DNA of 14,339 nucleotides from IMG/VR virus record IMGVR_UViG_2617270984_000006; one strand, 5' to 3'. The stretch comes from a virus. Taxonomy: Duplodnaviria; Heunggongvirae; Uroviricota; Caudoviricetes. Shown one piece after another: positions 1 through 14,339 of this stretch (positions are counted from its first letter, which is position 1; every line of letters begins with the position of its first letter). The position numbers and the translations under genes were made by a program. The notes beneath the pieces are model-generated. The model ran no database searches, was not told where the DNA came from, and saw only the letters and a list, made by a program, of their open reading frames with translations.

Positions 1-546
1 ATGAATATTAGTGAACTTAAAAAGTGTATACACTATGAAGTAATAGGTTATAAACGCCCTTTCTCCTGGCGAAAAGCAATTGTTCGCGCAATAAAACACA
101 GAAGATTACGTTATTTATTTTGGTGGCGCATAGCCAAATACCTTTTTGATAAAGGCGGATACTGTCGGAAGATTGCGGGAAAAATAGAACGTTTCATTCT
201 TGATAAATACAATGTAACCGTTCCCTTAACTGTAAATATTGGTAAAGGGTTTGACATATCTTATCTCAATGGCGTTGTTATCGGTCACAAAGTTACAATA
301 GGTGAAAATTGTTCAATTAAGCCTGGAGTAACTATTGGACTTCGCGGTGAATTTAATGATATGGATATTGTCATAGGAAATAATGTAACCATTGGCTGTA
401 ACGCCACCATCCTTGGTGGCAAAGTGCATATAGGGAATGATGTAAAAATAGGAGCTCATGCATTGGTACTGCATGACATTCCTGATGACTCCACATTCAT
501 TACTAAATTTCACTCTGAAATTATTTATAACTCATCTCACACATAA
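1..546 (+). CDS. Hexapeptide-repeat (left-handed beta-helix) acetyltransferase, WcaB/CysE-like; probable cargo gene
   Basis: 181-aa ORF beginning exactly at window base 1, so the true 5' end could lie upstream. Tandem [LIV]-G-x4 hexapeptide units (GVVIGHKVTIGENCSIKPGVTIG; IGNNVTIGCNATILGGKVHIGNDVKIGAHALV) preceded by a basic/aromatic N-terminal region, as in WcaB/CysE-type O-acetyltransferases. Visibly AT-rich relative to the adjacent tfa/stf genes (not computed). Confidence 0.7.
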   Translation: MNISELKKCIHYEVIGYKRPFSWRKAIVRAIKHRRLRYLFWWRIAKYLFDKGGYCRKIAGKIERFILDKYNVTVPLTVNIGKGFDISYLNGVVIGHKVTIGENCSIKPGVTIGLRGEFNDMDIVIGNNVTIGCNATILGGKVHIGNDVKIGAHALVLHDIPDDSTFITKFHSEIIYNSSHT

Positions 547-556
547 TTCCGTTTAA

Positions 557-1129
557 TCACAGCTCTGGCCATACAATATCCGGAGCTGTATTTATATCAA
601 TCCGACTCACTAATACCCGGTATTTTTTCCAGGAAGATAGCATCGATACTTCCTCATCAGTTGCCATTTCAAAATTAACAGCATCCTGCAGAATTGTTAT
701 GTTATCAGTCGCTTCCTGGATTAATCTTGCCTTTTTCTCTTCCGCCTCCCGGATCCGGAACAGTTTTTCTCCTTCTGCATCTTTCACCCAGGCTGTGCCG
801 TTCCACTTCTGAAACTCCCCATCCGGCGACAACCAAGTGACGTTTTCTGGTAATGGGCCAAGTTCAGAAATAAATAACGCGTCGCCGGAAGCCACGTCAT
901 AGACGGTTTTTCCCCGATGGTCTTCAACGAGATGCCACAATGCCTCATCACTGTTGAAAACAGCCACGAAGCCAGCCGGAATATCTGGCGGTGCAATATC
1001 GGTACTCTTTGCAGGCAGCCCTGTATGGGGTGGAATATATGCATCACCTTCACCAATAAATTCATTAGTTCCGGACAGCAGATTATAAATTTTTATGGTC
1101 CGTGATTGTTCACTCATTCTGAATGCCAT
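557..1129 (-). CDS. tfa: Tail fibre assembly protein (lambda Tfa family)
   Basis: 190-aa ORF. The N-terminal ~130 aa ([92 protein letters not shown]) closely resemble lambdoid Tfa proteins as I recall them. Its ATG overlaps the stf stop (TAATG on the minus strand), the classic stf-tfa arrangement. Confidence 0.85.
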
Positions 1130-2244
1130 TATGCAAGCCTCACAATATAGTTAAATGCGATGTTTTTGACGGTGTTTTCCGCGTTACCAGCAGCGTTAAC
1201 GGTGATGGTGTGTCCATGTGAACCAATCGCAACAAAGTGCGTATGTGCACCAATAGCGACAGTATGTGTATGCGCCCCAGCACTTGCTGCGGTACCTGAT
1301 ACTGAGTGGGTATGCGCGCCAGCAGAATTCGTTGCACCTAAGTGAGTTTGAGCAGAGTTCGACGAAGCTACTCTACCGGAGCTAACGTTAGCATTATCCC
1401 CCTGAGATATCGGATGCGTATGTGCACCTGCTGAAGCTGCTGTTCCGCTAACGCTATGGGTATGCGCACCAGTGTTATTCGTAGATTTAGTTCCATAATC
1501 AAACGATGATGTGTTTTTTGTCCCTAAATCTGTATTTGAAGCACTGGCGCTGTGGGTGTGCGATTTAATGCCGTCCTGTTCCTGAGACAATACGGCACGA
1601 CCACTGGCGGGCTTGCCCTTAATCGTCCAGCCACGCATATCAGGGATCACGCCTGACGGATAAGCGGCTGCAAGTTTCGGGTATGCAGACTTGTCAAAAG
1701 TCTGTCCCTGCATCAGAGCATAACCAGATGGAACTGTATCTGATGGCCACGGGATCGGGGCACCTACAGGAAAGGTCGAATTATTTTCCAAACCAAGATA
1801 TTTAAGGACATCAGCAACAGAGCTTTTTGCCAAAATATCTCGCCCAACCTGTGTCAGGTCAGCCAAATTAGCGGTATCTTGATTGGTAAAATACGGTAAT
1901 TTGTTTTCGGATGCTGAAAGATTAGCAAGTGCGGTAAGTATGGCATTAATTCTCTGATAGTTCTTATCTAATGCAGACGACATTTTTGCGATAAAGCCGG
2001 CCTGATCGCCATCGTCCTGTACATCCAGTCCACTTTCATTTGCTGTATATTGTGCCATTGCAGATGCAATAAAGCTGGCCTGTCGAATAACCTTATTGAC
2101 TTGCGCACTGGATGCTTTCCCTGCTGTAAATCCGGATAAAAGCGCAGGCAACGCTTCCCATTCCTCCTGCGACATAACATTGGCATTTTTACCCGTTGCG
2201 AATGCTTTAAAGTCATTTTTTGCCATCAGAGTAATACTCCCCAT
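1129..2244 (-). CDS. stf: Side tail fibre protein, distal receptor-binding portion only (lambda Stf-like); probably a 5'-truncated remnant
   Basis: 371-aa ORF. Segments ENKLPYF...[22 protein letters not shown]...[75 protein letters not shown] and the C-terminal [13 protein letters not shown] match the C-terminal region of lambda Stf from memory. Repeated G-A-H-T-H/H-G-H motifs. An in-frame stop lies 3 codons upstream of the ATG, and no shaft/anchor region is present upstream. Confidence 0.8.
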
Positions 2245-2374: not shown

Positions 2375-2983
2375 GATAAACGAGTAGTTCAGATTGATGC
2401 TCTCGACAGCGCATTACAGGGCGTCAAACGAGCCAGAGCGCTGCTTAAACCTGCTCTCCTGGACCTGTCCCGTAACATTCTTAAGTTCTGGGACGACCTG
2501 CCAACCATCGGCGAGCGACGTGCTTTTGCCGAGCAGCTACTTGATGCACCTGCAGATGGGCGTGATGAAGTTAAGCCGAAAAAGGCCAGTAACAAAGATG
2601 GAGAACGCACGGGGCCGTTTTACGTCAAAAATGTATCCGGCACAGCAGCCAGTGAACTCCACACCTTACGCAAGTTGAACGAGATGCTTAAAAAAGGCCA
2701 TATCGAGATCAACCGTGTTGAGTACCTTCAGCTGCAGGAAGAATTTGCACGCAGAGACGCAGCAAATTCCAGTCAGAATAATGACGCCAAAGATGACCAT
2801 ACAATTGATTTCGCGGCACTACGCAAACAAGCTGAAGGGTTGATCCTCCAGTTAGCAAAAGGGGGTTACCGGGCAGAAGCTATTGCAATTCTGGAAAAAC
2901 AGGGAGCCAGGAAACTTGGTGAAGTAACGGATGAAAATCTCGCTGAAGTAATCACCCTGGCTGAAAAAGCACTGGAGGGTTAA
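2375..2983 (+). CDS. Hypothetical protein; frame open from 2375 with no canonical start before TTG 2675 (possible 5'-truncated gene)
   Basis: Frame of the listed ORF 2675..2983 stays open back to a TGA at 2372-2374 and translates into protein-like sequence (..[60 protein letters not shown]..). Its stop lies 2 nt before the DUF2800 ATG, preceded by GGAGGG, indicating translational coupling. No ATG/GTG/TTG occurs in frame before 2675, and TTG 2675 has no obvious Shine-Dalgarno. A minimal call would be 2675..2983. Confidence 0.4.
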
Positions 2984-2985
2984 TC

Positions 2986-4287
2986 ATGCCAGACGTTCAC
3001 GCACAACTTTCTCCATCATCAGCGCATCGATGGATGCGCTGCCCAGGAAGTCTGGCGCTGGAGGCCACACAACCGGATAAAGAAACAACTTTTGCAATCG
3101 AGGGCACTGCAGCGCATGCACTTGCCGAAAAGGTGCTGCGCAACCGCCAGAGCCACCCGGAGCACTATGCAGGTTGCACCGTCGCGATGTTCCTCGGATC
3201 CTATCCTCTTGCTGAGCACCCGGATGATACTTCCGGCCCGCAGGTAGATGAGGAAATGGTCGAAGCCGTTGGTCGTTACGTCGACACTGTTTGGGCGCTG
3301 GCGCAGGGCAATGAGCTGCTGGTCGAGCAGCGTGTCGACTTCTCCCATATCGTGGGCGTAGACGAGTCATTCGGTACCGCCGACGGCGTAATCATCGCGG
3401 GCAACGAGCTGCAGATCCACGATCTGAAATACGGTAAGGGTGTGCGGGTCGACGCCGAGCAGAACGAGCAGCTGCAGCTGTATGCCCTTGGCGCACTCGA
3501 ACAGTTCAGCATGCTGTACGACTTCGAGACGGTGCGCCTGTTCATCCACCAGCCGCGGCTTAACCACGTTTCAGAGTGGGCTCTGACGGTGGAAGAGCTC
3601 CAGGCGTTCGGCGAACGGGCGCAGGAAGCGGCAGCCAGTGTAATCGTGATGTTCAACATCGCCGATTGCGAAGGCGTCGAAACCCTGCCGCTGGAAAACT
3701 TCACCCCCGGGGAAAAACAGTGCCGATTCTGCAAAGCCAAAGCAGTCTGCATTGCTCAGAAAATGCAGCACATGCAAACTGCTGCCAGCGATTTCGAAGA
3801 CCTGACCAAACCGGTTAGTGAAATCATCACTGATGCCAGCTCGCGCGTACCGCTTCTGACAATCGAGGAACTGGCGGAGATCTACAGCCAGGCCGACTTT
3901 ATTGAATCCTGGCTAAAGGCTGTGCGCGACCGGGTGAACAGTGAGCTGAACGCCGGGCATCCGGTACCGGGCTTTAAGTTGGTTACTGGTAAACAGGGTA
4001 ATCGCGCCTGGAGCGATGAAGAAGCCGCCCGCGCGCTGCTGAAAGACCAGTTCAGGTACAAAACTGAAGAAGTATTCGACTTTAAACTTATTAGTCCCAC
4101 AAAAGCCGAAAAACTTATCAAAAAGGCCAGTCCGCGCCGTTGGTCAAAAGTCGAGGCACTGATAACACGAGCTGATGGTAAACCCACCGTCGTTCCCGAG
4201 TCAGACCCACGCCCCGCACTCAATATCAACCCTGTAAATGATTTCGACGACGTATCCGACGATACGCTAACCGCAGACCTCATCTGA
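2986..4287 (+). CDS. DUF2800-family PD-(D/E)XK nuclease, Cas4/RecB-like, with putative Fe-S cysteine set
   Basis: 433-aa ORF with RBS GGAGGG. Nuclease-like motifs [15 protein letters not shown] and QLQLYAL (QxxxY). One N-terminal Cys (RWMRCPGS) plus C-x2-C-x5-C ([10 protein letters not shown]), the pattern of Cas4/AddB-type iron-sulfur nucleases. First gene of a DUF2800-DUF2815-PolA synteny typical of phage replication modules. Confidence 0.8.
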
Positions 4288-4302
4288 TTTAAGGAAATAC
4301 CC

Positions 4303-4851
4303 ATGAAACTGAAGCTGAACAATGTTCGTCTGGCCTTCCCGTCTCTGTTTGAAGCTAAAACTGTAAACGGCGAAGGCGATCCGCGTTTCTCCGCAGTATT
4401 TTTAATGTCACCCAAACACCCACAACTGGAAGAAATCCGTAAAGCTATGAAGCAGGTAGCGAAGGAAAAATGGGGAGAAAAGTGGGAGCCCATTTATAGC
4501 CAGCTGGAGAAAAAACTCAATCTGTGCCTACATGATGGTGATGAAAAAGCAGAGTATGAAGGCTTTCCCGGTAATTTCTTCCTGAATGCTGCTAACAAAG
4601 CGCGCCCAGCTGTTCTTGATCGCGATCGTTCGCCACTAATTCAGGCTGATGGACGTCCCTATGCAGGGTGCTATGTAAACGCCGTTATCGATATCTGGGC
4701 ACAGGACAATAATTTCGGTAAACGCATTAATGCCTCACTCGGCGGAGTCCAGTTCCTGCGAGACGGCGATGCATTCGCTGGCGGCGGAGTGGCAAGCGCT
4801 GACGATTTTGACGATATCAGCGAAGGTGCTGATGCTGAAGCACTAATTTAA
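4303..4851 (+). CDS. DUF2815-family phage protein (putative ssDNA-binding/replication accessory)
   Basis: 182-aa ORF with RBS AAGGAAA 7 nt upstream. N-terminus MKLKLNNVRLAFPSLFE and acidic C-terminal tail (DDFDDISEGADAEALI) resemble DUF2815/phage SSB-like proteins; position between DUF2800 and PolA fits the conserved module. Confidence 0.75.
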   Translation: MKLKLNNVRLAFPSLFEAKTVNGEGDPRFSAVFLMSPKHPQLEEIRKAMKQVAKEKWGEKWEPIYSQLEKKLNLCLHDGDEKAEYEGFPGNFFLNAANKARPAVLDRDRSPLIQADGRPYAGCYVNAVIDIWAQDNNFGKRINASLGGVQFLRDGDAFAGGGVASADDFDDISEGADAEALI

Positions 4852-4861
4852 AAATATTCAT

Positions 4862-4882
4862 CCCCCAGCTACGTGCTGGGGG
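4862..4882. other. Perfect GC-rich stem-loop (8-bp stem, 5-nt loop) at the boundary of an AT-rich insertion
   Basis: cccccagc (4862-4869) / tacgt / gctggggg (4875-4882), exact reverse complements. No T-tract follows on the + strand; a weak T-rich stretch follows on the - strand. Lies between the DUF2815 stop and the first AT-rich gene. Confidence 0.5.
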
Positions 4883-4902
4883 ATCTCATGAGGGAAAGTA
4901 TA

Positions 4903-5544
4903 ATGTCACAGCCCGTATTAACTAATCACCTTAAAACTCAAATCATCAATAACGCACTTGAGAAAGCGGGTATCCCCAAACGTAAATCAGCACTACGAGC
5001 TGCTCGTGTTGAATGGGCCGAACGTGTTCGGCTTGCAGCTATCGGGGGCGTAGAGAAAGAAGCTGAAATATTAAAAAATATAAAAAAGATTGAATCCATG
5101 GTCACAAAAATCCCTGATTCATTAAAAACCAATAGTTCTTTAATTCGAAAAGATTGCTGCATATATCTCAATCTGGCTGGAGCCAGAGCAAACATTTATT
5201 TCAATGGCAACTACAGAGGTTATGAATCAGGAGCCCCCGAGCATATTAATAAAATAGCACCTGCAGAATTTACTCTACTTGGCGAAGATCCTCTGGTAAC
5301 GGAGTTTTATAGCTTTGATGCTCTCTACACACAAATTAAAAGTGATGAAACCGAAATCATACAGAACGTCAGCGCGGCTCTAAATAAAGTTCGGACAGTA
5401 AAACGATTACTGGATGTATGGCCCGAAGCTAAAGAACTGCTTCCAACAGACGCACCGCCAGTCCCTTTAGCACCAGCGGTACATCGAGAGACATTAAATG
5501 AAATGATAGGCCTTCCTACCAATACAGTGTCTGATACTCAATAA
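4903..5544 (+). CDS. Hypothetical protein (AT-rich accessory gene X); no family recognised
   Basis: Listed ORF starts at GTG 4873 inside the stem-loop; ATG 4903 (MSQPVLTNH..) has an AGGGAAAG Shine-Dalgarno-like element 7 nt upstream, and ATG 4888 is an alternative. About 213 aa from 4903. AT-rich compared with flanking replication genes (by eye). Confidence 0.55.
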   Translation: MSQPVLTNHLKTQIINNALEKAGIPKRKSALRAARVEWAERVRLAAIGGVEKEAEILKNIKKIESMVTKIPDSLKTNSSLIRKDCCIYLNLAGARANIYFNGNYRGYESGAPEHINKIAPAEFTLLGEDPLVTEFYSFDALYTQIKSDETEIIQNVSAALNKVRTVKRLLDVWPEAKELLPTDAPPVPLAPAVHRETLNEMIGLPTNTVSDTQ

Positions 5545-6227
5545 CAAGGGGGATGCTTATTATATGATTTTGAACGTTTTACAATCTCGTTAAGAGGCGT
5601 GAAATCAAAATCTCTGAATAACACATCAGGATACTTCGCTCTTGCTTTATCCAGCAGACCAGTTAAAGTATTTTTTGTGTTACCCAACATTGTATTAACC
5701 GCCACTACATGTCTAATTTCTGGAGGTTTATCTATACCACCAGAAATTGCTTCATTAAGAACCGACGCCAGTGGGGTTTGTCCCTTACTTGTTGAATCCC
5801 ACAGCGTCATTAACAGACGAACTGCGTCTATAAATAGCTTTTTGTCAGCATTTGGCTTGACAGTAATACCAGAACTACCTGAGCCAGAACCGGAACGTTC
5901 TATTGCTGCACTGGTATCCGATTTCATAGGATTAAATAACGGCAGCTCTGTACAACCGATACGCCGAATGAAATCCTTTGCAACATCTCTACCACAGAAA
6001 AAAGCCCCTGTACAATTTTCATCAGAGCGTTTTTTAAATGAAAAACAATAGTACTGATCGGTTAACGGATAACCGGAATAACTGGTTTTAGTTTGTCCAG
6101 TAATAAGTTTCAGGTGTGCAACAGGCTGAATAGTAAAATCCCGAACTATCGCATCTTTTATGTCGTTACCACGGTGACAATAATATTCAGGTAATCCATT
6201 AGGCTGTCTCTTATTACCCACAGTCAT
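5538..6227 (-). CDS. Hypothetical two-domain protein (AT-rich accessory gene Y); Cys-rich N-domain, Gly/Ser linker, helical C-domain
   Basis: 229-aa ORF with strong RBS (AAAGGAG 7 nt upstream of the ATG on the minus strand). Internal SGSGSGSSG linker; N-terminal region carries five Cys (YYCHRGN..YYCFSF..CTGAFFCGRD..RRIGC). 3' end overlaps the convergent gene X by 7 bp. Confidence 0.6.
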   Translation of the reverse strand: MTVGNKRQPNGLPEYYCHRGNDIKDAIVRDFTIQPVAHLKLITGQTKTSYSGYPLTDQYYCFSFKKRSDENCTGAFFCGRDVAKDFIRRIGCTELPLFNPMKSDTSAAIERSGSGSGSSGITVKPNADKKLFIDAVRLLMTLWDSTSKGQTPLASVLNEAISGGIDKPPEIRHVVAVNTMLGNTKNTLTGLLDKARAKYPDVLFRDFDFTPLNEIVKRSKSYNKHPPCY

Positions 6228-6288
6228 TAGTTGTCTCCTTTAATTCATGATATCTAGCATTTAACCATATACCATATGAGGATATTTT
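6228..6288. promoter_or_regulatory. AT-rich divergent intergenic region; probable promoters for gene Y (-) and the polA operon (+)
   Basis: 61-bp AT-rich spacer between divergent start codons, with RBSs on both sides (GAGGA for polA, AAAGGAG for gene Y). Candidate sigma70-like hexamers TTGTCT (6231-6236) and TAGCAT (6254-6259) with 17-bp spacing; weak match, not validated. Confidence 0.3.
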
Positions 6289-8352
6289 ATGTCCAATATA
6301 CTATGGGGCGACCTGGAAACCTATTGTGACATTCCGATCAACAACGGTACCCATGCGTATGCCGAAGGCGTTGAAGTGATGCTTTTCGCATGGGCTATCA
6401 ACGACGGGCCAGTAAACGTGTGGGATATCACTGCCGGTGGTGGTATTCCACACGGCTTATACGAAGCAATCGCAGACCCTGAAACCCTGCTTTATTTCCA
6501 TAACTCTCACTTCGACCGCACCGTTCTGCGTTATGCAATGCCGCGACTGGCACCGCCAGTCGAACGTTGGCGCGACACGATGGTGCAGGCGCTGGCGCAC
6601 GGTCTCCCGGGGTCTCTGGGGGAACTCTGCGAAGTACTAGGCGTCCCGCAAGACAAAGCGAAGGACAAAGAAGGTAAAGCGCTGATCCAGCTGTTCTGTA
6701 AGCCACGCCCGAAAAACAGCAAACTGCGTCGGGCCACCAGTAAAACCCACCCGGAAGAATGGCGGCGCTTTGTTGCTTACGCCGGACTGGATATCGAGGC
6801 AATGCGCGAAGTCTATAAACGTCTGCCGAAGTGGAATTATCAGGGGACAGAGCTGGCGCTCTGGCATCGTGATCAGCAGATCAACGACCGGGGCGTCTGC
6901 ATGGACATGCAACTCGCGCGCGCTGCGATCGAAGCGGTAGACCAGGAGCAAAAGCGCCTGGCAAAGCGTACACAGGAAATGACTGATGGCGAAGTGCAGG
7001 CAGCCACACAACGGGACGCGTTGATTAAGCACATCGTTGAATCCTACGGTGTGGAGCTACCAGACATGCAACGCAGTACCCTAGAACGTCGTATAGCCGA
7101 CCCCGATTTACCATCTGCCGTGAAAGAACTGCTGGCTATCCGCCTGCAAGCCAGTACTACCAGCACCAGTAAATACAAGGCACTAATGAAAGGCGTAAGC
7201 CACGACGGGCGCTTACGCGGTACGCTACAGTTCTGCGGGGCGTCGCGTACCGGGCGCTGGGCCGGACGGCTATTCCAGCCCCAGAACCTTCCCCGCCCTT
7301 CACTAAAACAGGAACAAATAGACGAAGGCATCGAAGCACTGAAAGCCGGATGTGCAGACCTGCTGTTTGACAATATCATGGAACTAACCAGTTCAGCGTT
7401 ACGTGGCTGCATTATCGCGCCAACAGGCAAAAAACTGGTGGTAAGTGACTTGTCGAACATTGAAGGCCGTATGCTGTCATGGCTGGCAGGAGAAGAATGG
7501 AAACTGAATGCATTCAGAGAGTACGACGCCGGAACGGGTCCGGACTTATATAAACTGGCGTATGCAAAAGCTTTTGATATTGCACCAGATGATGTTGATA
7601 AACGCATGCGTCAGATCGGTAAAGTCATGGAACTCGGTCTGGGTTATGGTGGTGGTGTGTCGGCCTTCATCACTTTTGCACTGGTTTACGGTCTCGATCT
7701 CGACGAGCTGGCAAACGCTGCACTGCCAAACATTCCCCGCGATGTTATCCGCGAGGCGAAAAGCTGGTACGGCGAATCGGTTAAACGTAAGTCAACCTAC
7801 GGCCTTTCTGAACGGGTATTTATCGCCTGCGACTCACTTAAACGTCTCTGGCGCCGGGCGCATCCCGCGACCTGTGATTTCTGGTACGAACTGGAGCGCA
7901 CCGTCCGCACTGCAATCGCCACACCGCAAAAAACATTGTATTGCGGTTATCTTAAAATCCGCCGCGATGGCGCGTGGCTACGCATACAGCTACCATCCGG
8001 ACGCGCTGTATGCTACCCGTCTCCGGTTATCGAACAAGGGAATATCACCTACATGGGTGTTAACTCTTATTCGCGTAAATGGCAACGACTCAAAACCTAC
8101 GGCGGAAAGCTGGTGGAGAACGTCACCCAGGCGGCCGCCCGCGACGTTCTGGCCGGAAACATGCCGCTTATCGAAGATGCCGGTTACAGCATTGTGCTGA
8201 CGGTACACGACGAGGTGATCACCGAAGCACCTGACACAGAAGATTTCAACGATAAAGCGCTTTCCGCGCTTCTCTCCACTAACCCCGAATGGGCGCCCGA
8301 TATCCCACTGAACGCTGGCGGTTTTGAGGCGTACCGCTACCGTAAGGATTAA
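6289..8352 (+). CDS. Family A DNA polymerase (phage type) with 3'-5' proofreading exonuclease domain
   Basis: 687-aa ORF. Exo motifs DLETY (Exo I), [10 protein letters not shown] (Exo II), YAGLDIEAM (Exo III). Polymerase motif [13 protein letters not shown], motif [17 protein letters not shown], motif C LTVHDEV. No 5'-3' exonuclease domain is evident. Confidence 0.9.
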
Positions 8353-8357
8353 CTCCT

Positions 8358-8573
8358 ATGTCATTTAAATACCGGGACAATCCACTTTATTACAGGGCTG
8401 CAAGGGAGGCTTTGCGACTTGAACAATCCGGCGAATATGACCGGGCAGCGAAGGTCTGGGCAAAAGCCAACCGCGAATCACATCACGAATTGAATCAGGA
8501 ATGGAGTGAACGCAGATCTGATTTTTGCCTGATGCAGAATATGCGTGAAAAGCGTAAGGTGGTCGAAGAATGA
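8358..8573 (+). CDS. Small basic protein, possibly PerC/ANR-like regulator
   Basis: 71-aa ORF with AAGGA RBS. The pattern YYRAAREALRLEQSGEYDRAAKVW...RRSDFC is reminiscent of small PerC/ANR-type prophage regulators; assignment from memory only. Stop overlaps the next start (ATGA). Confidence 0.45.
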   Translation: MSFKYRDNPLYYRAAREALRLEQSGEYDRAAKVWAKANRESHHELNQEWSERRSDFCLMQNMREKRKVVEE

Positions 8574-8869
8574 TCGTTTACGTTGCCGGGCCGATGAGCG
8601 GTTACGAGCAATTTAACCGCCCGGCTTTTCATTCCGCAGCAAAGAAGCTAACGGACAAGGGATATGTTGTGCTTAACCCCGCAACTGTACCCAATGGTTT
8701 GACACAGGCTCAGTATATGGACATCTGCCTCACAATGCTTCGCTGTGCCGATACGATTTATATGCTCAAAGAGTGGGAGTACTCTGCCGGCGCACGTGCA
8801 GAAAACGCGTTGGCAGAGAAACTGGAATTGAATGTGCTTTTTGAAGAGTGGGATTCAGATGGCCTATGA
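8570..8869 (+). CDS. DUF4406-family protein (nucleoside 2-deoxyribosyltransferase-like fold)
   Basis: 99-aa ORF starting MIVYVAGPMSGYEQFNRP...VVLNPAT, the characteristic N-terminal signature of DUF4406/deoxyribosyltransferase-like proteins. GGTGG RBS; ATGA overlap with the upstream ORF. Confidence 0.65.
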   Translation: MIVYVAGPMSGYEQFNRPAFHSAAKKLTDKGYVVLNPATVPNGLTQAQYMDICLTMLRCADTIYMLKEWEYSAGARAENALAEKLELNVLFEEWDSDGL

Positions 8870-9128
8870 ACGTGAAAGCCTTATCGAAAAGCACCTCGTC
8901 GCTGAAGTGAAAAAAGCTGGCGGAGTGGCCTTTAAGTTTGTATCTCCCGGTCACCGCTCGGTACCGGATCGCATTGTCCTGCTACCAGGTGGTCGTATCT
9001 TTTTCGTTGAATGTAAATCACCCGGCAAGCCACCACGGCCTGACCAGTTGCGCGAACATGAACGTCTGCGAAAACTGGGCTTTACCGTAGTGGTGCTGGA
9101 TAGCAAGAACCTAGAGAGGATATTATAA
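8859..9128 (+). CDS. VRR-NUC domain nuclease
   Basis: Likely start at ATG 8859 (MAYERESLIEKH), overlapping the DUF4406 stop; the listed ORF begins at 8832. PD-(D/E)xK-type motif ...VPDRIVLLPGGRIFFVECKSPGK... typical of VRR-NUC. Confidence 0.8.
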   Translation: MAYERESLIEKHLVAEVKKAGGVAFKFVSPGHRSVPDRIVLLPGGRIFFVECKSPGKPPRPDQLREHERLRKLGFTVVVLDSKNLERIL

Positions 9129-9132
9129 AAAT

Positions 9133-9702
9133 TTAGTCAATGCCTTTTTGATTGAACTTCTGATTCTCCAGTATGCCTTGCAGCTCAATATTATCATTTG
9201 CAGCGGTTTGTTTATGCTCATGATATTTTTCTTGTGTATAATTTCTTTCTCTTAGTTTCTGTGCATAATTATTAGAAATAATATCATGACGATCTTGTAA
9301 TACTTGTTCAAGTTGACTTTTAAAGTCCTCTATCTTTTCATTAGAAATAACATTTTTGTACTTTTCAATATCACGGCGAAGTTCTTTTTCTTTCTTCTTA
9401 TTAATGCTTAATAACTGTCGATTAACGCTACCTAAGGACCATTTAAACCCAATCGACTTTATCCAATGTGCCAGAAACATAGCGCAACTGGGAAGCATTA
9501 ATAAAAGAAATGGCTTTATTGTATTTAAATCAGAACCAATATACGGAAAACGACCGTCCCACGAGGACACCAGTAATGTTAAAAAACCAGTGATGCCACC
9601 AGCAGCAACATTAGAAATCAGAGGGACTTTTTCGTAGCTATCAGGTTTAGAGGCGCTACTCAAACGTCCCTCCTTTGACTGATCTTCCAGCACGAATGGC
9701 AT
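9133..9702 (-). CDS. Predicted membrane protein with two hydrophobic helices and a long charged coiled-coil-like C-terminal region (cassette gene C)
   Basis: 189-aa ORF. Hydrophobic segments LISNVAAGGITGFLTLLVSSW and IKPFLLLMLPSCAMFLAHWI, then a K/E/R/Q-rich tail (KKKEKELRRDIEKYKNVISNEKIEDFKSQLEQVLQDRHD...). An alternative TTG start sits after AAGGAGG just downstream of the listed ATG. Very AT-rich. Its stop is 4 nt from the convergent VRR-NUC stop. Confidence 0.6.
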   Translation of the reverse strand: MPFVLEDQSKEGRLSSASKPDSYEKVPLISNVAAGGITGFLTLLVSSWDGRFPYIGSDLNTIKPFLLLMLPSCAMFLAHWIKSIGFKWSLGSVNRQLLSINKKKEKELRRDIEKYKNVISNEKIEDFKSQLEQVLQDRHDIISNNYAQKLRERNYTQEKYHEHKQTAANDNIELQGILENQKFNQKGID

Positions 9703-9904
9703 TCATTGCAATTTTGTAAAATTCATCATCAGAAGAGACATCAACGACATCGCGACGGACAACTCCTTCTGAGTCAACACATTCAAGAACAAGATGATGT
9801 TTAGGCATAAGCGCAAAGCGTAACCGGTCAAACCCCATCTTAAGAACCCAATATAGTACGGGAAGCAGGCTAAAAAAAGCCAGCCAAAAAGCAAAAGCAA
9901 TCAT
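9656..9904 (-). CDS. Small single-pass membrane protein (cassette gene B)
   Basis: 82-aa ORF. N-terminal hydrophobic helix MIAFAFWLAFFSLLPVLYWVL followed by an acidic soluble tail. Strong RBS GGGGAGGGGG immediately upstream on the minus strand. Overlaps gene C by 47 nt in a different frame. Confidence 0.5.
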   Translation of the reverse strand: MIAFAFWLAFFSLLPVLYWVLKMGFDRLRFALMPKHHLVLECVDSEGVVRRDVVDVSSDDEFYKIAMNAIRAGRSVKGGTFE

Positions 9905-9927
9905 AGCCCCCTCCCCATGTGAATCTA

Positions 9928-10806
9928 CTATAAGATGCCGTGTACTTTAACAACTATGTACGTTTTGTCCAGCGAATTCAAGTTCTCACGGACGAGCAAA
10001 TCAACGAAGTAAGCATCACTAAAAACACCAGGTTCTCTTCCCGTACTAACACGTTGTAAGAACTCAGTATCTTCTATAGACACGCTGATTGTGTCATCGC
10101 CATAGTTGACTCGCCAGCCTGTGTTTTTATCCTTATGAATAGTCAAAAATGTGATTAGAGCCTCTTCAATCACCCTTTCAGACAAGGACTGCACTACAGG
10201 AACGCGCCTATATCTGAACGGTTCAATATTATCTTCGTGCACCTTAATCAGCTCAACCCCCTGTTGAGTTGAAATTTTAAGCGATTCGTATCCTTCCTTT
10301 TGCAAAGGATTATGAATTAACTTCGATAAGGATTTGCGTATGCTTGGTGAGGCAAGTAAAGGCCGGAAATATGACGGGGCTATAATTTCCTCACCATCAT
10401 CCATAACTATTTTACAGTCTCCTTCCGCTGTTAAAGTCAACCGTTTTATTTGCCTACCATTGATCTGACGAATTAAGTCAATGAGAGTATTTCCTGCTGC
10501 GAGTGCAGCTGTACCTCCAAGCCCAATAATGCTTAATATATTCAAATGGTCAAGTGGATTTTGAATAACATCAATCAAATACTCAAATGAGCCTTCTTTA
10601 AAAGGCTCAACCTCAACATTAATACACTCACTAGTGCCATTGACAACCAAATTAACTTCTTTAAGCAAGTTGTTTAGTCCATTCAATGACTCAGTTAAAA
10701 CATCCAAATCTATTTTATGATCTGCTAGTGCGGGGCCATCATATTTAACAACTAATTTATCAGTAATATTTTCTTCTTGCTGGACATCTGTATAAGCTGA
10801 GGTCAT
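9928..10806 (-). CDS. Hypothetical soluble protein, 292 aa (cassette gene A); no family recognised
   Basis: Long AT-rich ORF antisense to the replication operon. RBS AAAGGAA about 6 nt upstream of the ATG. Gly-rich stretch IGLGGTAALAAGNTL; no catalytic motif that I can name. Confidence 0.65.
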   Translation of the reverse strand: MTSAYTDVQQEENITDKLVVKYDGPALADHKIDLDVLTESLNGLNNLLKEVNLVVNGTSECINVEVEPFKEGSFEYLIDVIQNPLDHLNILSIIGLGGTAALAAGNTLIDLIRQINGRQIKRLTLTAEGDCKIVMDDGEEIIAPSYFRPLLASPSIRKSLSKLIHNPLQKEGYESLKISTQQGVELIKVHEDNIEPFRYRRVPVVQSLSERVIEEALITFLTIHKDKNTGWRVNYGDDTISVSIEDTEFLQRVSTGREPGVFSDAYFVDLLVRENLNSLDKTYIVVKVHGIL

Positions 10807-10873
10807 AACTGTTCCTTTCGAAATAAATAATTAAGCTATTACTACATAAGTTCATTCATGGAGATACAATACC
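10807..10873. promoter_or_regulatory. AT-rich divergent intergenic region; probable promoter(s) for the antisense three-gene cassette and for the SNF2 helicase gene
   Basis: 67-bp AT-rich spacer between divergent start codons, each with its own RBS (AAAGGAA for gene A, GGAGAT for the helicase). Several weak -10/-35-like hexamers; none singled out. Confidence 0.3.
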
Positions 10874-12271
10874 ATGGACTATGCTATATTTTCACCTCAC
10901 CCCTACCAAGATCTCATCATCAATCATCAAATCGACATTATGCGCTGCAACATCTGGGCAGGCATGGGAATGGGTAAAACCATGGCAACGCTCATTGCGC
11001 TGGAAGATCTTTTTATGGCAGGGGCAGAAACACGCCCCGCACTGGTCCTCGCGCCGCTACGTGTTGCAGCAAACACCTGGCCGGATGAAGCAGTGAAGTG
11101 GGGGCATTTGCGCAATATCGAGGTGCAGCCGATTGTTGGTAATGCCAAAGCGCGCTCTACGGCGCTGGCGAACAGCAACGCAAGCGTGTTCACCATCAAC
11201 TACGATAACCTTGTCTGGCTGGTTGAAGAATTGGGAGAACGATGGCCGTTCGGTATTGTCATTCCAGATGAAAGCACCCGGCTAAAATCCTTCCGGCTGC
11301 GAGGTGGTGGTAAGCGCGCGGCGGCGCTGGGCAAAGTGGCGCATAAGTATGTCCGGCGCTGGATAAATCTCACCGGTACGCCAGCACCGAACGGCCTGGT
11401 AGATTTGTGGGGACAATCGTGGTTTGTGGACCAAGGGCAACGTCTCGGGCGCACTTACGGCGCGTTTACCTCACGCTGGTTCAACTCGATACAGTTTCCG
11501 GGACAGAGCTGGACTAAACTGGAGCCTTTTGCTCACTCACAGGGTGAAATACAGCGAGCATTAGCCGATGTGACCCTCTCGCTGGATGCGGCCGACTGGT
11601 TCGATATCAAAGACCCCATCCATAACGTAATCCGCGTGGATATGCCGCCGAAGGCCCGTCAGCAGTATCGTGAAATGGAAAAGGAAATGTTCCTCGAGCT
11701 GAATGGCGAAGGTATCGAAGCACCGAACGCCGCGGCAAAGACACTGAAGTGTCTTCAAATCGCCAGTGGCGCAGTATACACAGACGACACCGGAAGTTGG
11801 TCAGAACTGCATGACACCAAACTACAGGCGCTGGACAGCATACTGACCGAAGCAGCTGGCGCACCTGTGCTGGTTGCTTATCACTGGAAACACGATCTTG
11901 AACGCTTGCTTAAAGCATTCCCTCGCGGTCGTCACCTCGACCAGGATCCACAGACACTGCGCGACTGGAATTCCGGAAAGATTCCTGTTCTCTTTGCACA
12001 CCCAGCCAGCGCGGGCCACGGCCTGAACATGCAGGACGGCGGGAATATACTGGTATTTTTCTCACACTGGTGGGACCTGGAGCAATATCAGCAAATTATT
12101 GAACGTATCGGCCCCACCAGGCAGATACAGGCCGGACACAATCGTCCGGTATTTATTCACCACATTATTGCTGCCGACACTATGGACGAAATGGTGATGG
12201 AGCGGCGCAACTCAAAACGAACAGTGCAGGACATCCTGCTCGATGCCATGAAAAAGAGAGGTATAGCATGA
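10874..12271 (+). CDS. SNF2-family (DEAD/DEAH-box-like) helicase
   Basis: 465-aa ORF. Walker A AGMGMGKT, DExx box IPDESTRLK, C-terminal helicase motif HPASAGHGLNMQ. Final gene of the replication module. Confidence 0.9.
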   Translation: MDYAIFSPHPYQDLIINHQIDIMRCNIWAGMGMGKTMATLIALEDLFMAGAETRPALVLAPLRVAANTWPDEAVKWGHLRNIEVQPIVGNAKARSTALANSNASVFTINYDNLVWLVEELGERWPFGIVIPDESTRLKSFRLRGGGKRAAALGKVAHKYVRRWINLTGTPAPNGLVDLWGQSWFVDQGQRLGRTYGAFTSRWFNSIQFPGQSWTKLEPFAHSQGEIQRALADVTLSLDAADWFDIKDPIHNVIRVDMPPKARQQYREMEKEMFLELNGEGIEAPNAAAKTLKCLQIASGAVYTDDTGSWSELHDTKLQALDSILTEAAGAPVLVAYHWKHDLERLLKAFPRGRHLDQDPQTLRDWNSGKIPVLFAHPASAGHGLNMQDGGNILVFFSHWWDLEQYQQIIERIGPTRQIQAGHNRPVFIHHIIAADTMDEMVMERRNSKRTVQDILLDAMKKRGIA

Positions 12272-12468
12272 GCGAGAAACCCGACGATTTACTCACCCCG
12301 GATGAAGTATGCCAAAAGTTAGGTATTACACAGAAAACGCTATGTGAGTGGAATATTAAGCATCGTCATCGGGCTATCCTGGCACCAATTCGTTTCAGTG
12401 CAAAAGTAGTTCGTTATGAGCGCCGCAATGTAGACGCTTTTATTCAAAAGTGTCGCAGCCGGTATTAA
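12268..12468 (+). CDS. AlpA/excisionase-like helix-turn-helix DNA-binding protein
   Basis: 66-aa ORF; LLTPDEVCQKLGITQKTLCEW...PIRFSAKVVRYERRNVDAFI fits the AlpA/Xis-type HTH pattern. ATGA overlap with the helicase stop. Located next to the integrase, as excisionase/regulator genes usually are. Confidence 0.7.
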   Translation: MSEKPDDLLTPDEVCQKLGITQKTLCEWNIKHRHRAILAPIRFSAKVVRYERRNVDAFIQKCRSRY

Positions 12469-13870
12469 CCTCGCCGTCGTAGCAATGCCACCTGCGCAAG
12501 TATGCTCCGCTCGTGAGCTTCGAAAGCTTCGCGCTTCAACGCAATCTCTTCCTGTAAAATCTCATCAGAAAAGTCGTAATGTTCTGCCATCGGGTCATCT
12601 GACTTGCTGGAGTGATGAAGGCAAAGGAGGCTGATTTCCCTTCGGTCTGAGCGGGAATAGCCTCTTTCCTTCATCAAGGCAATAACATTGCTCTTAAGGA
12701 ATTTACGGCACATAGTATTAAATGCACCGTCTTTCCCTTTAACAGTCCCATCATGTTTTATTCCTTTTACAGCCCCGTCCGGGCTGTATGTTTTCACTAG
12801 CTTATCCAGTGATCGTTTTGAAAATGGCTGCATTGGATCACGTGGCTGCAAAAATACATAATCCCTATTGCACTCAGGAACTGAATCACGCCAGGCTTTC
12901 TGCTCGTCGATAATCCGCCGGATCTCAGGCGTTATCGGCAGGGGGGAAAGCCTTTTTGTTTTTTCATAGCCCCTCGCATGCCGATAACCCCTTCCGGATA
13001 AACAATTTCACCAGCCTCCTCGTGAACGTAGTCCCAGCGCAGGTTATGGACATTAATCGGACGAACGCCAGTGATGATCATGAAGCGAACAGCATTCTTC
13101 TGGTGTACAGAGGCGCAGGCAGCAACATTGAGCCAGAGTCGGGCGATTGATTCAATATCGGTAAAAAGCCGTGTGGGGGTAGGTTTCTGTACGCGGGAGG
13201 AAACATAATCATCTGGCAGACTGGCGGCAACATTGCGGCCGTTGCAAAGAGTAGGTGCGCAGAACTTCCAGAACCGACGGAGCTCGGCAAACAACTCCAG
13301 GGCGTTATTGTTCGAGCGAGTGGCGATCCACTCGTCCAGCACTTCCACCAGCCGATTGTATGTTACGTCGCTGAACACCTCGCGCTCGCCGAACGTTGCT
13401 TTAATCCGGTCTATACGCACCCCGTAGGTTGTGAAACTGTCCGGGCTCAGCTTCTGCCGTGCGACTTTGGCTTTGAGGTCATCCCGGTACATTTCCAGCG
13501 CTGCATGTACGGACTCTGCCCGCAGGCCACCGTCAGCCATACCTAGCGCTTTTTCGCGCGCCAGCTGGATAGCGAGCTCCGGCCACTCGCCGAGCTTTTT
13601 ACCTTTGAGGCCCATCTTTTTTGGAAACTCGGCGTAAAATGTAACCTTACCGGCTTTGCTGAAATCGATACGGAGATAGTTCTCTTTTTCGTATTTGGAA
13701 CGGCGAGCCACACCGGAAGCAGCGAGGATGATTTTGGCGGCAGCAACACAGATTTTCATGTGTGCGCTGGTATAGGGGGGTTTACAGGCGTCCCATTTTT
13801 CAGATGCGGCTAAAACATCGTCATTATTGGGGCTATCCGGATTATGTGTTACAGTGCGCGGCATTCTCAA
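12465..13870 (-). pseudogene. int: Tyrosine-type phage integrase interrupted by a 1-nt frameshift in a homopolymer (or sequencing error)
   Basis: Two ORFs in different frames, 12932..13870 and 12465..12851. The upstream ORF carries box I (ITGVRPINVHNLRWDYV). The downstream frame, read back to 13007, gives EKTKRLSPLPITPEIRRIIDEQ...YVFLQP... and the C-terminal LHHSSKSDDPMAEHYDF (His and catalytic Tyr). The frames can only switch within the T6 run at 12959-12964; one extra T would give a continuous product of roughly 465 aa. Confidence 0.75.

Positions 13871-14339
<469 letters not shown>

Follow-up and report, generated by a model that had tools for sequence, protein, structure and literature searches.

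We analysed a 14,339-nucleotide (nt) stretch of viral DNA (record IMGVR_UViG_2617270984_000006), referred to below as the window; all coordinates are window positions unless a locus label (L0xx) is given. The window is a remnant of a decaying Escherichia coli prophage. Its bases 2375-14339 were 99.8-99.96% identical to the prophage located beside yfhL/acpS in E. coli S1-IND-01-A (L001), and an IMG/VR contig of 14,337 bp matched it as well. The replication module encodes a DUF2800 nuclease and a DUF2815 single-stranded DNA-binding (SSB)-like protein, followed, after the interval studied here, by a family A DNA polymerase (PolA), an ANR regulator and a DUF4406 protein, and then by a VRR-NUC protein, a second AT-rich island, an SNF2 helicase, an excisionase-like gene and an integrase. 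The interval in question, 4852-6288, holds two genes, X and Y. Its backbone edges are the gene for the DUF2815/Enc34-type single-stranded DNA-binding protein on the left (4303-4851, plus strand; Pfam PF10991, E=7.6e-44) and that for PolA on the right (6289-8352, plus strand; Pfam DNA_pol_A and a 3'-5' exonuclease domain).

Genes X (4903-5544, plus strand) and Y (5538-6227, minus strand) lie tail to tail, and their stop codons (TAA at 5542-5544 for X and TGA, the complement of 5538-5540, for Y) produce an overlap of exactly 7 nt, as proposed in an initial annotation made from the sequence alone. The same annotation had described both genes as more AT-rich than their surroundings, and the base composition bore this out. 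The G+C content (GC) and the GC at third codon positions (GC3) were 0.411 and 0.304 for X and 0.394 and 0.283 for Y, versus 0.544 and 0.570 for PolA and 0.559 and 0.624 for DUF2800; the values for DUF2815 were 0.485 and 0.437, and the GC of the interval 4852-6288 was 0.401.

Neither gene had initially been given a family name, but both could be assigned, X to Nmad5 (PF18757) and Y to PF27729 (UCP028583). The 213-amino-acid (aa) product of X matched PF18757 at E=1.5e-54 with 185.7 bits (cut-off 27), from position 3 to 206 of the 206-position profile, and phrog_1965 at E=2e-57, and the identical RefSeq protein, WP_001520089, is named "Nmad5 family putative nucleotide modification protein." The open reading frame (ORF) of X opens at GTG 4873, while its likely start is ATG 4903, 7 nt after GAGGGA; the RefSeq start in the identical prophage is the same ATG (213 aa). 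Transcription of X presumably accompanies that of the replication genes. Like other genes for Nmad5 ("nucleotide modification associated domain 5"), it sits among phage early and replication genes; Nmad5 was found in 154 phage records, at sites including the nin region, the N-cIII region, an N4-like replication module and the terminase-portal gap. In M6-like phages, Nmad5 is tied to cassettes for thymidine hypermodification that precede the polymerase (PMC9476957). Unlike Nmad5 genes elsewhere, X is not accompanied in the window by the usual modification partners (pyrimidine hydroxymethylase, aGPT-Pplase, nucleotide kinase, radical-SAM protein), and an M6-like neighborhood (hydroxymethylase, aGPT-Pplase, nucleotide kinase) was found neither in the window nor in the full prophage L001. 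The only gene to be noted in this regard is that for DUF4406 (nucleoside deoxyribosyltransferase-like), 3 kb downstream.

Gene Y encodes a basic protein of 229 aa (pI 9.24, net charge +8.8; the median pI of the family is 8.96). The PF27729 model was not in the local Pfam copy, and Y was assigned through its homologues in a collection of 5.8 billion proteins, where the precomputed PF27729 (UCP028583) match was carried by a 99%-identical cluster (P0001) and by all 27 relatives. A profile search of 1.84 billion representatives returned 433 clusters at E<=1e-3, nearly all of them 200-230 aa long and matched over their full length, and nearly all of the top 150 representatives aligned over Y positions 15-220. 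The family ranges over mobile elements of Proteobacteria and Firmicutes, and the Enterobacterales subfamily that includes Y is small (~15 clusters among the 5.8 billion proteins).

An AlphaFold2 (AF2) model of Y built with 14 homologues (pLDDT 82.9, pTM 0.81) places residues 14-100 in an alpha/beta N-domain and, beyond a disordered Gly/Ser loop (105-121, pLDDT <50), predicts a C-domain of six helices, in agreement with the SGSGSGSSG linker and helical C-domain noted initially. This arrangement of an N-domain, a variable loop and a helical C-domain within ~200-230 aa is common to the family, judging from a 59-member alignment and the AF2 model, and Y thus has the length and two-domain layout of the other members. 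The description of the N-domain as Cys-rich was overstated: there are 6 cysteines among the 229 residues, C78 alone is invariant in the close subfamily, and none is invariant family-wide. A metal-binding Cys-rich N-domain was rejected, since zero cysteines are conserved across the family. The residues invariant throughout the 59-member alignment, F62, G79 and N178, look structural and not catalytic.

Y had no match in the local Pfam, PHROGs, NCBIfam or PADLOC, either alone or with 59 relatives, nor in the PDB (with a single sequence or a profile) or BFVD. No paper that mentions UCP028583, PF27729 or the RefSeq accessions was found in literature searches, and the supplements of the DefensePredictor paper do not contain these proteins. 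UCP028583 is an uncharacterised, fold-orphan family without a recognisable relative of known structure, and without a described function or literature match. Some relatives match its N-domain only. One of them, a 110-aa N-domain version in Vibrio alfacsensis pSEA2 (L046 5986-6318), immediately precedes a cluster of methyltransferase, helicase and GIY-YIG nuclease genes, and tyrosine recombinases flank the element that contains it; in Staphylococcus aureus pWBG707 (L012 5001-5261), the matching N-domain stretch is unannotated and may be a pseudogene.

Y has signals of its own. Its ribosome-binding site (RBS), AAGGAG (6235-6240, minus strand), is read from the sequence 7 nt before the ATG and is as strong as initially claimed. 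As for the divergent promoter region that had been proposed for Y, the 61-nt gap between Y and PolA contains a conserved 29-nt motif (6260-6288, minus strand, 33-60 nt upstream of the Y ATG), but a scan of the gap for a sigma-70 consensus called no promoter. The motif reads AAAATATCCTCATATGGTATATGGTTAAA in the sense of Y, with the consensus AATAACCTTnnnTG(A/G)TATATGGTTAAA elsewhere; it resembles an extended -10 element and carries a TAACC/GGTTA inverted repeat, and its other strand overlaps the RBS region of PolA. It is kept in the window, in the related prophage L039, in Pantoea-type prophages and in all the lone copies of Y described below, and it also occurs upstream of an unrelated 89-aa gene found in other prophages at the same position. 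The possibility that the TTTAACCATATACCA motif belongs to the PolA backbone only was ruled out by its conservation in the lone copies; it travels with Y. The motif is a candidate extended -10 promoter or operator, and, as the consensus scan made no call in the gap, we can only infer that it would be the promoter of the opposite-strand cargo.

Two hairpins could end the Y transcript. The stronger one, a ten-pair hairpin at 4860-4884 found by a terminator scan, has a U-tract on the minus strand only and is a candidate strand-specific terminator. RNA folding of 4884-4860 gave -20.8 kcal/mol (z=-4.66, with 0/200 shuffles as stable), the stem is followed on the plus strand by CTCATGAGGG, with no T-run, and the same hairpin is present in the prophage L003, where Y is replaced by the 89-aa gene. 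The weaker one, at 5504-5521 (minus strand), was detected in a scan for terminator-like structures; it has 7 pairs (3 G-C), which by themselves are weak evidence, and a T-rich tail, lies inside the 3' end of Nmad5 and may be the proximal terminator of Y. The lone Y copies retain a 3' stub of Nmad5 that carries this region. An Rfam scan of 4600-6500 gave nothing at E<=1. Y would form its own minus-strand transcription unit that starts at the 29-nt motif abutting the PolA start and ends either at the weak hairpin in the 3' end of Nmad5 or at the 4884-4860 hairpin; with the latter end, the Y transcript would run antisense across Nmad5.

The DUF2815-PolA interval in related prophages

We then determined what lies between the same flanks in other genomes. 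The flanks were matched in 158 of 5426 complete E. coli genomes, just 26-27 of which had the X and Y content, and the contents of the interval were determined for 60 of the 158 records, sampled in even steps down the ranking, plus annotated examples. The most frequent content, in 31 of the 60 sampled records, was a single very AT-rich gene for a 209-aa membrane protein on the minus strand (type C). Nmad5 with Y, as in the window, was present in 10/60 (type A), and Nmad5 (as a 79% identical protein) with a minus-strand gene for an 89-aa protein with two transmembrane segments in 12/60 (type B). A BRO-N protein was encoded in one record (type D), while five records matched on the DUF2815 side only (type E), a type that in the one example examined (ECONIH2) encodes a 500-aa SIR2 protein. 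The remaining, 60th record matched PolA only. The 89-aa gene was considered as a relative or fragment of Y, and this was rejected at an hhalign probability of 0.1.

The variants differ from the stop codon of DUF2815 onward and are alike again from the ATG of PolA, and their GC is 0.30-0.43 except in the BRO-N type. Nmad5 itself is optional cargo in this prophage family, with a DNA match in ~59/158 genomes. The initial annotation had taken the interval for an accessory hotspot and not for core replication genes, and the finding of at least five contents, with X and Y in a minority of the flank-matching genomes, upholds this. Because most of these genomes hold other genes there, the interval does not appear to belong to core replication, and from the sequences compared we take it to be a variable cargo slot with interchangeable content.

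Slots of this kind are familiar from prophage morons such as the lambda rexAB and sieB types and from the hotspots of P2 and P4. The interval is like them in combining a fixed backbone position with swappable content, and Y is like the morons in being AT-rich and placed on the opposite strand with its own RBS; it also has a candidate promoter and a candidate terminator. Y is also present in some and absent from other close prophages at the same backbone position (27/158), and its GC3 of 0.283 contrasts with that of PolA (0.570) and DUF2800 (0.624), a contrast that recurs in L023. As in defense hotspots, SIR2 and TIR proteins are encoded in sister prophages, either here or in the adjacent slot. 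The slot differs from hotspots of the P2/P4 type in that a replication operon surrounds it, with an SSB-like gene on one side and PolA on the other, a position that to our knowledge has not previously been described as a hotspot.

Stand-alone copies of Y and its separability from Nmad5

Within its close subfamily (62-73% identical), Y is mostly a lone gene between ordinary chromosomal genes. There are nine stand-alone or island copies, all monocistronic, in Dickeya, Enterobacter, Morganella and metagenome bins, and several of the lone copies have zero phage genes within 8 kb. The DNA upstream of the lone copies aligns with the window across the 61-nt Y-PolA gap and into PolA, where codons 2-11 survive as the stubs SNLLWDELET (L004, Dickeya) and LSNILWDALE (L005, Enterobacter), with the start codon lost in both. 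On the downstream side, C-terminal stubs of Nmad5 are preserved, LRRETLDEMIGL in L004 (Dickeya) and ~45 codons in L033. The E-values of the stubs, 1.4e-4 to 2e-3, are valid only for the 300-nt search space chosen beforehand. Because decayed PolA and Nmad5 stubs flank Y, the lone copies derive from the gene order Nmad5-Y-PolA that the window has. In E. coli EH2252, an IS1-bounded deletion extends from the holin gene to the middle of Nmad5 and leaves Y untouched; here the loss of the phage around Y is seen in progress.

Four copies in different genera (L004, L005, L030 and L031, each at 7845-8760) share a fragment of ~0.9 kb whose left boundary is the same in all of them, lying ~155 nt upstream so that the PolA stub is included. 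They sit between unrelated chromosomal genes, with no recombinase. A reading of the lone copies as mobile cassettes was tried and dropped, since no consistent terminal repeats were found around four of them.

All 12 of the 12 Y copies compared were intact, and dN/dS was 0.11-0.19 at a dS of 0.17-0.63 among lone copies with a common truncated flank, which means that those copies diverged after the truncation. Because the copies are intact, evolve at this low dN/dS and diverged after the truncation, Y has been kept by selection in cells without the phage. The stubs of Nmad5 and PolA beside an intact Y are unusually direct evidence of a gene kept after phage loss.

The lone copies bear on the possibility that Y acts on its own replication module, either by binding near the start of PolA, as an additional repressor or a regulator of timing, or through its transcription, which would block read-through into PolA in the lysogen. 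Such a role would suit a basic protein whose promoter-like motif overlaps the RBS region of PolA and has a TAACC...GGTTA inverted repeat, and convergent transcription would oppose the replication operon. However, the lone copies of Y are conserved without PolA or other phage genes, most sister prophages replicate without Y, and the same slot elsewhere holds membrane proteins, SIR2 or BRO-N. We hold self-regulation to be very unlikely, mainly because Y is kept under selection without a mobile element.

The relation of Y to its neighbor X was assessed in more distant prophages. In Pantoea-type prophages (PolA 70-72% and SNF2 79% identical), the slot contains a Y with 56% identity that points away from PolA at a distance of 58 nt. 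The gene that converges on this Y encodes a DUF2303 protein and has normal GC, and only Y is AT-rich (0.39 vs 0.53-0.55). In the prophage L039, the backbone (DUF2815, PolA, SNF2) is 91-94% identical to that of the window, while Nmad5 and Y, again convergent but with a 4-nt overlap, are both at ~72-73%; because the two genes have diverged alike amid a more similar backbone, the pair can move or diverge together. No consistent linkage of X and Y was found across lineages, Y occurring with DUF2303, Nmad5 with the 89-aa protein, and Y alone. The initial view of X and Y as one insertion could not be sustained, as Y shares the slot with DUF2303 and Nmad5 shares it with the unrelated 89-aa membrane protein. 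On these comparisons, Y behaves as a self-contained opposite-strand unit, and X and Y are separable passengers.

The two genes could nonetheless form one module, in which Y is the immunity or regulatory partner of a toxic Nmad5, or the reader of an Nmad5-dependent DNA modification, and the overlap provides antisense control. Their joint divergence or exchange in L039 would fit this, as would the retention of a convergent overlap (7 nt in the window, 4 nt in L039), the derivation of the lone copies from an Nmad5-Y-PolA arrangement, and the strong minus-strand terminator beyond Nmad5, with which Y transcripts may be antisense to Nmad5. In a Dhillonvirus, a point mutation in nmad5 let the phage escape Tmn defense, and the gene seemed toxic and could not be cloned, which also fits; its deletion gave no escape (PMC11846954). 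Set against the module are the presence of Y beside DUF2303 instead of Nmad5, the presence of Nmad5 beside the 89-aa protein, the 154 phage records with Nmad5, none of which encodes Y, the purifying selection on Y where Nmad5 has been destroyed, and the distant Y relatives, which have no conserved neighbor. Such a module is quite unlikely in our judgment, and the DUF2303 and lone contexts of Y speak above all against an obligate one.

Genomic contexts and proposed role of Y

Genes of genetic conflict were found within 8 kb of Y relatives in ~8 of 17 distinct contexts. These were SIR2_2 (L004), Lamassu LmuB (L005), a type I restriction-modification (R-M) locus with Y inside it (L006 and L007), SIR2 with ToxN/AbiQ (L011 and L024), a methyltransferase, helicase and GIY-YIG nuclease (L046), a nearby CRISPR-Cas system (L027), a DUF4238/DUF2971 island (L031) and the window itself, where a gene for the PADLOC candidate PDC-S42 lies 3.7 kb away. 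In L006 and L007, Y follows HigB and a helix-turn-helix (HTH) protein with a zinc-peptidase HExxH motif, with an 8-nt gap. A conserved partner gene of Y was sought and none was found; the neighbors of the distant plasmid members share no similarity. For the defense, anti-defense or exclusion role put forward initially, the pointers come from genomic context.

Because Y is basic, occurs in such contexts and is kept by selection without the phage, the reading that we tentatively prefer, at close to an even chance, is that it is a host-serving moron, a nucleic-acid-binding protein engaged in conflict with incoming mobile DNA. Y would then serve the carrier cell and not phage replication: made from the resident element, it would bind nucleic acid and hinder incoming phages or other mobile DNA, by exclusion or defense.

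Several observations weigh against this preference. The family has no catalytic-looking invariant residues, and PADLOC-DB v2 gave only IetA for Y at E=0.034, which is noise, and nothing for 59 relatives bar one JAB match at 0.0031. About half of the contexts had no defense gene within 8 kb, several distant relatives are on plasmids with genes of the establishment or counter-defense type (ArdC-like zincin peptidase, RadC/JAB, DUF3846, topoisomerase), and the neighborhood counts are small and come from mobile elements rich in both defense and counter-defense genes. To these points are added the lack of a sigma-70 consensus promoter call in the 61-nt gap and the lack of consistent terminal repeats, inverted or direct, around four lone copies, which lie at unrelated chromosomal sites.

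The plasmid contexts lead to a further explanation, in which Y is a counter-defense or establishment factor, made on entry of a phage or plasmid, that neutralises host immunity or protects the incoming DNA, to the benefit of the phage and not of the host. Plasmid leading regions carry establishment and anti-defense genes in neighborhoods of the ArdA, ArdC and RadC/JAB types. Distant UCP028583 members resemble these genes in that, on conjugative or mobilisable plasmids, they belong to runs of small genes with a common direction and have as neighbors an ArdC-like zincin metallopeptidase (L011, L024), RadC/JAB, DUF3846 and YolD-like genes (L012), a topoisomerase (L025) or tra genes (L028), and nearness to R-M, SIR2 and ToxN suits counter-defense as well as defense. 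Y differs from the leading-region genes in being antisense to the phage early operon, where early transcription would oppose its expression, and in being kept in chromosomes without a surrounding mobile element. Its basic nature (pI 9.24, +8.8) is unlike that of the acidic DNA mimics of the ArdA/Ocr type that act against restriction, and a relative of Y is encoded in 0 of 50,697 phage records. The lone chromosomal copies, intact at a dN/dS of 0.11-0.19 and free of phage or plasmid genes for 8 kb around, would have no use for counter-defense, and mainly because of this selection without a mobile element we consider a counter-defense role unlikely.

Returning to a host-serving conflict protein, a bolder form of it is that UCP028583 is a new single-gene immunity or exclusion protein whose fold is not represented among solved structures, carried as a moron in a replication-module hotspot of enterobacterial prophages and repeatedly domesticated, the phage being reduced to stubs of its two neighbors while purifying selection preserved the gene and its promoter; this we regard as a possibility on the doubtful side. 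Prophage cargo slots are productive places to look for bacterial immune genes, and Y is a cheap candidate, with 690 nt, its own upstream signals and a family of ~430 clusters. If Y proved to have no phenotype, the finding would be that of an ordinary variable region with an already named Nmad5 gene.

Other variable points of the prophage

Other positions of the operon vary as well. The gap between PolA and VRR-NUC, which in the window (8358-8869) holds the ANR regulator and DUF4406 (nucleoside deoxyribosyltransferase-like) genes, is occupied in related prophages by a gene for a 253-aa TIR-domain protein (L002 9509-10270, L003 9865-10626 and L009 10451-11212). The second AT-rich island (9133-10806, minus strand, GC 0.31-0.44), between VRR-NUC and the SNF2 helicase, encodes a 292-aa protein matching the PADLOC candidate PDC-S42 (E=4.7e-40) and NCBIfam LAPAL_fam, together with an 82-aa ORF and a 189-aa protein of phrog_15878; sister prophages have other minus-strand genes in this gap, e.g., for a DUF6338 protein or a 265-aa hypothetical protein. 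In E. coli O121 201805972 (L008), an HNH endonuclease gene (1603-2118) lies between DUF2800 and DUF2815, a further variable point of the operon, and the start of PolA is annotated differently.

To the left of a junction at ~2375, the window (1-2244) carries an acetyltransferase-like ORF and genes for a tail fiber and its assembly, which adjoin a 5'-truncated phrog_6784 gene. As this junction was absent from all 5426 complete E. coli genomes, it seems that the genes for structural proteins, lysis, primase and repressor have gone from the element, unless the contig is a rearranged one. The integrase gene (12465-13870, minus strand) is split, residues 1-306 and 292-465 of an intact 465-aa homologue mapping to different frames; it is likely to be a pseudogene, in keeping with the decay of the prophage. 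In the S1-IND-01-A prophage (L001 28091-30706), the IS66-family element ISCro1 is inserted at the 3' end of the SNF2 helicase gene, before an HTH gene, and the window is without it.

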